Source of the DNA: a phage
Reading direction: 5' to 3' (one strand)
Length of the DNA stretch: 64,000 nt
Sequence record: PZ496580.1
Shown: positions 40,676-41,374 of the stretch, piece after piece
Numbering within the stretch: position 1 is the stretch's first letter
How the letters are laid out: each line of letters begins with the position of its first letter
Notes under the pieces: generated by a model
Databases searched by the model: none
Told to the model about the DNA's origin: nothing
The model's input: only the letters and a program-made list of their open reading frames with translations
Program-made: the position numbers and the translations under genes

Positions 40676-41374
40676 CTAACCACGGGTATAGTGTTCCAGA
40701 ACAACGGTCAGATGAATATATTCTAATAAATCTTTCCAAAAGTCAACATCTGGTTCTTCCGGCATACCGTTTTTCTTTGCCTCTTCACGCGCGAGTTTAA
40801 CACGCTCGTAGAGATCTTTCAATTCTTCCCGCACATTATCAAAGGTTCTTTCTCCTAACTTACACGCTAAAATAGAAGAACGTCGCGCGAGCGGGAATTG
40901 TAGATCACCTGTCTGATAGATTTCAAGTAGCTGATAACCAACACGCAGAGCATGAGAAAGATCTTTCCAGTTACTGAAATACTTTTCAGATTTGGCTACC
41001 TGTTTCTTGAGATAACCAGACAAACCCCACATACCAACATGATAGAATTTATCGCGATGTGTTCGGATGTATTCCCATTCTCTGGAGGATTCGATCAACA
41101 TGTTACTAGGCGCGTGCACCATGTCAATAGCGCCGATATCGCCTTTACATGCCAGATTGATAAACCGTTTTAGACTGAACATATTAACGTCAATATCGTC
41201 TTTGGTGTTCTTAATACCTTGACCGCTCGTGCTTTGGTCATAGTGTTCTTTCATCGATCCTAAGATAATTTCTTTCGCAGTCGGAACAAAGATACCACGA
41301 TAATCTTTATCTGAATTTTCAGTATCAAGACCGTACAAGTGAGATCCGAAGACCATTTTAACCATTGTATGCAT
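40676..41374 (-). CDS. nucleotidyltransferase (Pol-beta superfamily fold) of unknown specificity
   Basis: 232 aa; N-terminal FGSHLYGLDTENSDKDYRGIF fits hG[GS]-x(9-13)-DxD. Confidence 0.6.
   Translation of the reverse strand: MHTMVKMVFGSHLYGLDTENSDKDYRGIFVPTAKEIILGSMKEHYDQSTSGQGIKNTKDDIDVNMFSLKRFINLACKGDIGAIDMVHAPSNMLIESSREWEYIRTHRDKFYHVGMWGLSGYLKKQVAKSEKYFSNWKDLSHALRVGYQLLEIYQTGDLQFPLARRSSILACKLGERTFDNVREELKDLYERVKLAREEAKKNGMPEEPDVDFWKDLLEYIHLTVVLEHYTRG

Follow-up and report, generated by a model that had tools for sequence, protein, structure and literature searches.

A stretch of phage DNA of 64,000 nt (referred to below as the window) contains an open reading frame (ORF) encoding a small protein with a nucleotidyltransferase (NTase) signature. 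The window derives from an RB49-like, T4-type phage of the genus Krischvirus that infects E. coli, and the gene is designated nrdC.11 in the related phages RB49 and Phi1, with the RefSeq label "nucleotidyltransferase". We propose, with a probability of about 0.72, that NrdC.11 acts as a RlaP-type, template-independent RNA 3′-terminal nucleotidyltransferase in the repair of tRNA by the phage.

The features of the locus are summarized in Table 1. Comparative sequence analysis revealed that 2.6 kb of DNA around the NTase gene is 95–98% identical to the corresponding regions of Brandy, GoldenSnicker, GEC-3S, Phi1 and RB49 (90–99% across Krischvirus records). The encoded protein matches its Krischvirus RB49 counterpart at 100% identity, and identity remains at 99% or higher in 58 phage records. 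Alignment of the ORF with its GEC-3S counterpart identified 11 synonymous and no non-synonymous differences (dN/dS = 0), which confirms that this is a real gene under purifying selection. Its ribosome-binding site is also retained in GEC-3S and in a 57%-identical relative (locus L086).

Table 1. Genetic features identified around the NTase gene (coordinates refer to the window).
Feature	Coordinates	Strand	Remarks
nrdC.11-type RlaP nucleotidyltransferase gene	40676..41374	-	232-aa ORF, ATG start
Ribosome-binding site	41380..41388	-	GAGGG, 7 nt 5′ of the ATG; read from the sequence
Candidate sigma70-type promoter	41405..41433	-	TTGGCT-17-TATGAT with upstream TG (TGaTATGAT); 9/12 consensus match
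Intrinsic terminator between the GrcA-like and NTase genes	41427..41451	-	stem AAGCCAATCC/GGGTTGGCTT, then UUUCGUUUU
GrcA-like gene, T4 vs.6 homolog	41461-41877	-	Pfam Gly_radical, 1.5e-16; 5′ of the NTase gene
Tandem paralogous ORF	40460-40654	-	64 aa; directly 3′ of the NTase gene
Tandem paralogous ORF	40218-40478	-	86 aa
Tandem paralogous ORF	39819-40217	-	132 aa
RegB endoribonuclease homolog	39395-39889	-	Pfam REGB_T4, 3e-48; three genes 3′ of the NTase gene
Macro-domain protein	37881-38336	-	Pfam Macro, 2e-6; 2.3 kb 3′ of the NTase gene
At least seven short ORFs (54–71 aa)	42980-45170	-	hydrophobic-rich; upstream of the endolysin gene

The original prediction was based on a GS...DxD signature in the N-terminal peptide FGSHLYGLDTENSDKDYRGIF, which corresponds to residues 9–29 and comprises G10-S11, ten intervening residues and D22-K23-D24. 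A third acidic residue, D62, is located at the start of a strand (residues 62–67) of the structural model. In alignments of 15 and 35 homologs (39–58% identity), G10, S11, D22, D24 and D62 are invariant, as are residues W136, K137, H141 and R144 of the helical domain. The protein matched the Pfam RlaP family (PF10127) with a score of 53.6 bits (cutoff 23; E = 3.4e-14), residues 7–191 being aligned with profile positions 24–198 of 249; a short relative, P0002 (57% identical), spans positions 23–229 of the same profile. PF10127 is precomputed for all of the 120 homologs listed, PHROG 388 ("nucleotidyltransferase") was matched at 2e-79, and an exhaustive HMMER search retrieved 3575 cluster representatives (E≤1e-3). 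Judged by its sequence, the protein is a member of the RlaP family, a name said to originate from the 2016 work of Burroughs and Aravind, and is the Krischvirus ortholog of T4 NrdC.11.

The predicted NTase fold was thereby upheld, and the range of families that had been mentioned for it (antibiotic or protein nucleotidylyltransferases, MNT components and signalling-nucleotide synthases) could be narrowed. The profile searches identified RlaP instead, with no MNT/AbiEii/MenT or KNTase/ANT/Lnu hits and no confident match to a non-NTase family. NCBIfam contained no match to the protein, and PADLOC no credible one; a CARF/HEPN match in the latter (E = 0.032) was considered spurious. Searches of PDB sequences, performed with the single sequence and with a profile, returned haemoglobin, SAMTOR and a glycosylase (E 0.19–0.66), which were dismissed as chance matches.

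Many GenBank phage records label NrdC.11 homologs as "thioredoxin", "glutaredoxin" or even "HNH homing endonuclease" (hits H4, H13, H24, H29, H30 and others; proteins P0017, P0020 and P0035). All of the mislabelled proteins contain PF10127 and none contains a thioredoxin domain. This looks like propagation of a name derived from "nrdC.11".

In the AlphaFold2 (AF2) model of the 232-aa protein (mean pLDDT 92.1, pTM 0.88), a Pol-beta NTase domain (approximately residues 1–95) followed by a helical domain is confidently predicted. The former has a four-stranded core within residues 2–67 (strands 2–9, 24–30, 44–48 and 62–67), while residues 98–230 are nearly all helix and end in a long terminal helix (210–230), in agreement with the helical region of about 150 aa expected from the sequence. 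The closest solved folds are Hailong HalB, the kanamycin nucleotidyltransferase (KNTase) ANT(4′) and HEPN-like bundles, the last of these matching the C-terminal domain. All share at most 12–13% identity with the NTase protein (KNTase/ANT: Foldseek E = 1.5e-5, TM-score 0.37–0.39, 12% identity) and went undetected in the single-sequence and profile searches of PDB sequences. These resemblances are at the level of fold only.

A distinctive feature of the protein is its length. Nearly all close relatives are 300–350 aa long and are matched by HMMER in two stretches, since they contain approximately 100 extra residues after query position ~130, between the motifs GYxKKQ and WKxLSHALR. The long form is found in T4-type NrdC.11 (336 aa) and in the RtcB- and Pnkp-linked cellular proteins described below. 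In an AF2 model of Bp7 NrdC.11 (pLDDT 87) the insert is predicted to form an alpha/beta module with strands at 154–208. In the T4-type long form (P0037, ~131–240) it is flanked by the conserved motifs KYGxKGSR and YGERAxxAxxNxGIDW. When scanned by itself, the T4-type insert had no above-threshold Pfam match, and a DUF1409 match (21.8 bits, below the cutoff of 29.2) was judged spurious.

The 249-position Pfam RlaP profile aligns colinearly with the short form; in long forms the alignment breaks at the insert, which is likewise missing from more distant homologs of Bacillaceae (~250 aa). In a neighbour-joining tree rooted on the Bacillaceae homologs (no bootstraps; star-like deep structure), the Krischvirus protein and P0002, which is encoded on a syntenic Krischvirus-like contig, are nested inside long-form clades, and further short forms (P0153, P0143 with P0230, and P0247) occur elsewhere. 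Therefore, the Krischvirus short form most likely arose by secondary loss of the insert, and such loss probably occurred more than once. The nearest long-form sister, P0121, carries a divergent insert that lacks the otherwise conserved KYGxKGSR motif. At least one successful phage lineage can do without the insert, as the short form shows.

The GrcA-like gene that the original prediction had placed next to the NTase gene was confirmed (Table 1). The Gly_radical profile covers only the C-terminal ~42 residues (RVSGY region) of its product, and the N-terminal ~75 residues lie outside any Pfam match. Transcription of the NTase gene had been thought to depend on read-through from upstream genes, no dedicated promoter having been seen. 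However, a terminator scan identified a 10-bp stem followed by a U-run between the two genes, whose RNA fold has a free energy of −17.6 kcal/mol (z = −3.59; none of 200 shuffled sequences was as stable); a terminator is annotated at the equivalent position in GEC-3S. A weak promoter-like site overlaps the 3′ arm of this terminator. Together, the two elements disfavour simple read-through. The TTGGCT/TATGAT site is itself no more than a promoter candidate, weakly indicated by its match to the consensus: the scan found 15 sites in total, compared to 10.8±3.3 expected from shuffled sequences (no enrichment), the GEC-3S annotation has no promoter at this position, and the genomes that retain this intergenic region are all at least 90% identical, too similar for conservation to bear on the site.

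A functional link between the NTase and its GrcA-like neighbour was considered and rejected. The adjacency is restricted to Krischvirus-like phages, and a link is also contradicted by the terminator between the genes and by the closest non-identical relative, L086, in which the GrcA-like and RlaP genes are split by an HNH/NUMOD4 homing endonuclease gene (L086 positions 3951–4547). The neighbour is probably functionally unrelated to the NTase.

The three ORFs directly downstream of the NTase gene are paralogous (BLASTP 2e-13 and 2e-5) and have the common motif ITxGKxY...GYIKDD.GY...C(S/A)(H/Y)L...W; a Pfam search with these ORFs matched no family. The RegB homolog, read from its first TTG start, has ~24 residues more than the annotated GEC-3S protein (423 nt). 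The macro-domain protein, labelled "phosphatase" in GEC-3S, is encoded in the same orientation as the NTase. Macro domains act on derivatives of ADP-ribose, some of which arise as by-products when RNA 2′-phosphates are removed, and this protein could be linked to RNA repair or to the countering of ADP-ribosylating defences. On the upstream side, the short ORFs near the endolysin gene resemble small membrane proteins and are "hypothetical" in related phages.

The cellular relatives of the phage protein served as an independent test of the RNA-repair link. A scan of 185,579 species genomes with the alignment yielded 80 cellular loci encoding relatives 26–50% identical to the phage protein, and all flanking ORFs of these loci were clustered without prior annotation, the clusters being confirmed with Pfam. 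Apart from RlaP homologs, the most recurrent neighbours were RtcB (8 loci; Pfam 2e-132), Ro60/TROVE (6 loci), Hen1 (3 loci; Pfam 3e-112) and Pnkp (3 loci; Pfam 1e-168). In L008, the relative (48% identical) lies 10 bp from Ro60; L022 (Nitrosospira, 1555–9158; 43% identical) has a Ro60-RtcB-RlaP-RlaP-Hen1 array, and L034 a Hen1-Pnkp-RlaP arrangement. This recurrence ties the clade of the phage protein to RNA repair in cellular genomes. Tandem RlaP paralogs were observed inside the RNA-repair arrays of L022, L046, L048, L054 and L062, which may point to a unit that restores nucleotides in two steps or as a heteromer.

In the phage, the equivalent partners are not clustered with the NTase gene. 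No pseT or rnlA homologs were found in the window, and the NTase gene adjoins no RNA ligase or kinase gene. The near-identical phage Phi1 has both pseT and rnlA, approximately 75 kb from the NTase gene; no rnlB annotation was seen in the Phi1 regions examined. The NTase gene therefore co-occurs with pseT/rnlA in near-identical phages but has no operonic linkage with them. According to ARAGORN, the entire window (1–64000) is free of tRNA and tmRNA genes, so that this part of the phage genome contributes no replacement tRNAs.

The biochemistry of the family is known from two proteins of P. fluorescens and P. aeruginosa (PfRlaP and PaRlaP), encoded between rtcB and rtcA and described in a December 2025 preprint by Carruthers, Fatma and Huang (PMC12776372). 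Either protein extends an RNA 3′-OH by one or two NMPs (or dNMPs), with a preference for Mn2+, and neither acts on DNA or on E. coli proteins. The 3′ end of a broken anticodon loop is favoured over the acceptor end, and aminoacylation of a tRNA lacking one anticodon-loop nucleotide is partly rescued (PMC12776372). The PfRlaP crystal structure contains an N-terminal NTase and a C-terminal helical domain separated by a cleft, with the last helix packed onto the NTase domain, and the family is characterized by "three strictly conserved aspartic acids" (PMC12776372). T4 NrdC.11 was placed in the same family, in similarity-network cluster 5 (PMC12776372), and is dispensable under laboratory conditions (PMC9825161). 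In phages, the distribution of RlaPs mirrors that of RNA ligases, according to a jumbo-phage survey (PMC7824862). That survey attributes to Burroughs and Aravind (2016) the idea that RlaPs restore excised nucleotides before ligation, which was later elaborated in the preprint (PMC12776372).

We infer from these data an enzymatic activity, a tRNA substrate and a counter-defence role for NrdC.11. By analogy with the Pseudomonas enzymes, the carboxylates of D22, D24 and D62 would coordinate a pair of divalent ions (probably Mn2+), and the NTP and RNA 3′-OH would meet in the cleft between the NTase and helical domains, where one or two NMPs would be added without a template. Host tRNAs that have been cleaved and trimmed by "smart" anticodon nucleases of the RloC type are the likely substrate: NrdC.11 would most likely put back the excised nucleotides. 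The polynucleotide kinase PseT and RNA ligase 1 (RnlA), whose genes are located elsewhere in the genome, could then rejoin the anticodon loop at its full length and allow translation to continue. Given which RNA ends Rnl1 and RtcB are known to require, the restored 3′-OH should be directly ligatable by Rnl1 after Pnk action, and the 3′-phosphate problem raised for RtcB (PMC12776372) would be avoided.

Several points argue against the repair role. The available biochemistry concerns Pseudomonas proteins of cluster 1a and is in preprint form, whereas the phage protein is the ortholog of a cluster 5 member. The position of the gene away from any RNA ligase or kinase gene also counts against this role, as does the laboratory dispensability of T4 nrdC.11 (PMC9825161). 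Since the insert of ~100 aa has been lost from the phage protein but kept in its RtcB/Pnkp-linked relatives, substrate handling could differ. Moreover, nucleotide choice by RlaP in vitro is unspecific and faithful repair would therefore be inefficient, as acknowledged by the authors (PMC12776372).

The rival explanations are weaker than tRNA repair. The enzyme could instead tag intact host RNA, following MenT/AbiEii-like logic, with extension of tRNA or mRNA 3′ ends blocking aminoacylation or altering decay. Such an activity would suit the location of the gene, which belongs to an early-type cluster and precedes the RegB gene by three genes, and the finding that RlaPs, with little NTP specificity, label tRNAs and rRNAs of full length when given total E. 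coli RNA (PMC12776372). A phage with no tRNA genes in the window would, however, rely on host tRNAs and harm itself by blocking their CCA ends; added to the preference of RlaP for broken anticodon loops over acceptor ends and to the lack of MenT or AbiEii similarity in Pfam or PADLOC models, this makes host-directed tagging unlikely. It is quite improbable that NrdC.11 was repurposed against host immunity as an RNA-tailing or oligonucleotide-making enzyme, a reading prompted by the deletion of the insert, the move of the gene to the vs/regB early cluster and HalB being the closest solved fold. No sequence or profile match to the CD-NTase, cGAS-like or HalB families was obtained, nor any defence-operon context. 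A related proposal, that the protein is a HalB-like synthase of signal or decoy oligonucleotides which supplies or mimics a host immune signal as counter-defence, is very unlikely: identity to HalB is 13%, PDB single-sequence and profile searches miss HalB, the protein belongs by sequence to RlaP, and characterized RlaPs need an RNA 3′-OH acceptor and stop after 1–2 additions. In addition, no PADLOC model was matched, and the cellular relatives are found in RNA-repair rather than defence operons.

A nucleotidylyltransferase of small molecules or proteins, whether an antibiotic enzyme (ANT/KNTase or Lnu) or an MNT-like AMPylase with a HEPN partner, is scarcely credible. The fold-level match to KNTase/ANT given above is not accompanied by hits in Pfam, NCBIfam or PDB, and neither E. 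coli proteins nor DNA are substrates of RlaP (PMC12776372). No HEPN toxin or AbiEi partner, as would be expected for the MNT/AbiEii/MenT type, was identified among neighbouring ORFs, and it is hard to see what a lytic phage would gain from an antibiotic-modifying NTase. Decay after deletion of the insert, leaving a functionless remnant, might be suspected from the position of the short form inside long-form clades and from the insert of P0121, which is already divergent. We nevertheless give this explanation very little weight, as all catalytic and cleft residues are kept, dN/dS is 0 relative to GEC-3S, and the protein is nearly invariant in the 58 phage records although the flanking DNA is only 90–99% identical. 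Furthermore, the short architecture is the canonical Pfam RlaP layout, and the model is confident and compact.

The tRNA-repair reading is thus the one that we prefer. The family and its Pfam label were already known, as were the name of the gene and its proposed role, and the novelty of the present analysis is modest: (i) the Krischvirus ortholog as a probable derived short form, (ii) the repair neighbourhood of its cellular relatives, and (iii) the terminator preceding the gene. If NrdC.11 does restore the nucleotides excised by RloC-type anticodon nucleases ahead of Pnk/Rnl1 ligation, the third component missing from the classic T4 tRNA-repair counter-defence would have been found, and the way in which phages answer "repair-proof" ribotoxins would be explained. 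The short NrdC.11, of canonical RlaP size, would also be a convenient minimal phage enzyme.

With regard to known systems, the window protein shares with HalB and ANT(4′) the order of an NTase domain followed by a helical domain. Both belong to families other than RlaP and have no detectable sequence relationship with it; the product of HalB is free oligodeoxyadenylate, and the target of ANT(4′) is a hydroxyl group of an aminoglycoside. The cellular RlaPs of RtcB/Ro60 and Pnkp/Hen1 operons (for example, L008, L022, L034, L054 and L080) are closer, being 31–48% identical over nearly the full length and having the same motifs, but they are mostly long forms of 300–330 aa with the insert, and in several cases two paralogs are arranged in tandem.

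T4 NrdC.11 and its orthologs in Tequatrovirus (such as wV7 F412_gp178 and Bp7 NrdC.11) are 42–45% identical to the window protein over both conserved halves, with common catalytic motifs, Pfam family and PHROG 388. They are larger (~336 aa) owing to the alpha/beta insert of ~100 aa, which the window protein lacks and which separates the first C-terminal-domain helix from the WKxLSHxxR helix. The position of the gene also differs: nrdC.11 lies between mobD-region genes and nrdC.10 in T4-type phages, and between vs.6/GrcA-like and vs.8/regB in the window phage.

PfRlaP and PaRlaP, in turn, resemble the window protein in belonging to PF10127, in the three Asp residues and in the two-domain layout, a likeness judged from their published description; the window protein is close in size to the 249-position Pfam profile. 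The Pseudomonas proteins represent similarity cluster 1a and T4 NrdC.11 cluster 5 (PMC12776372). Whereas the former are encoded in an RtcB/RtcA operon, the window protein is phage-encoded outside any such operon, and its likely partner would be the 5′-phosphate ligase Rnl1, not RtcB.
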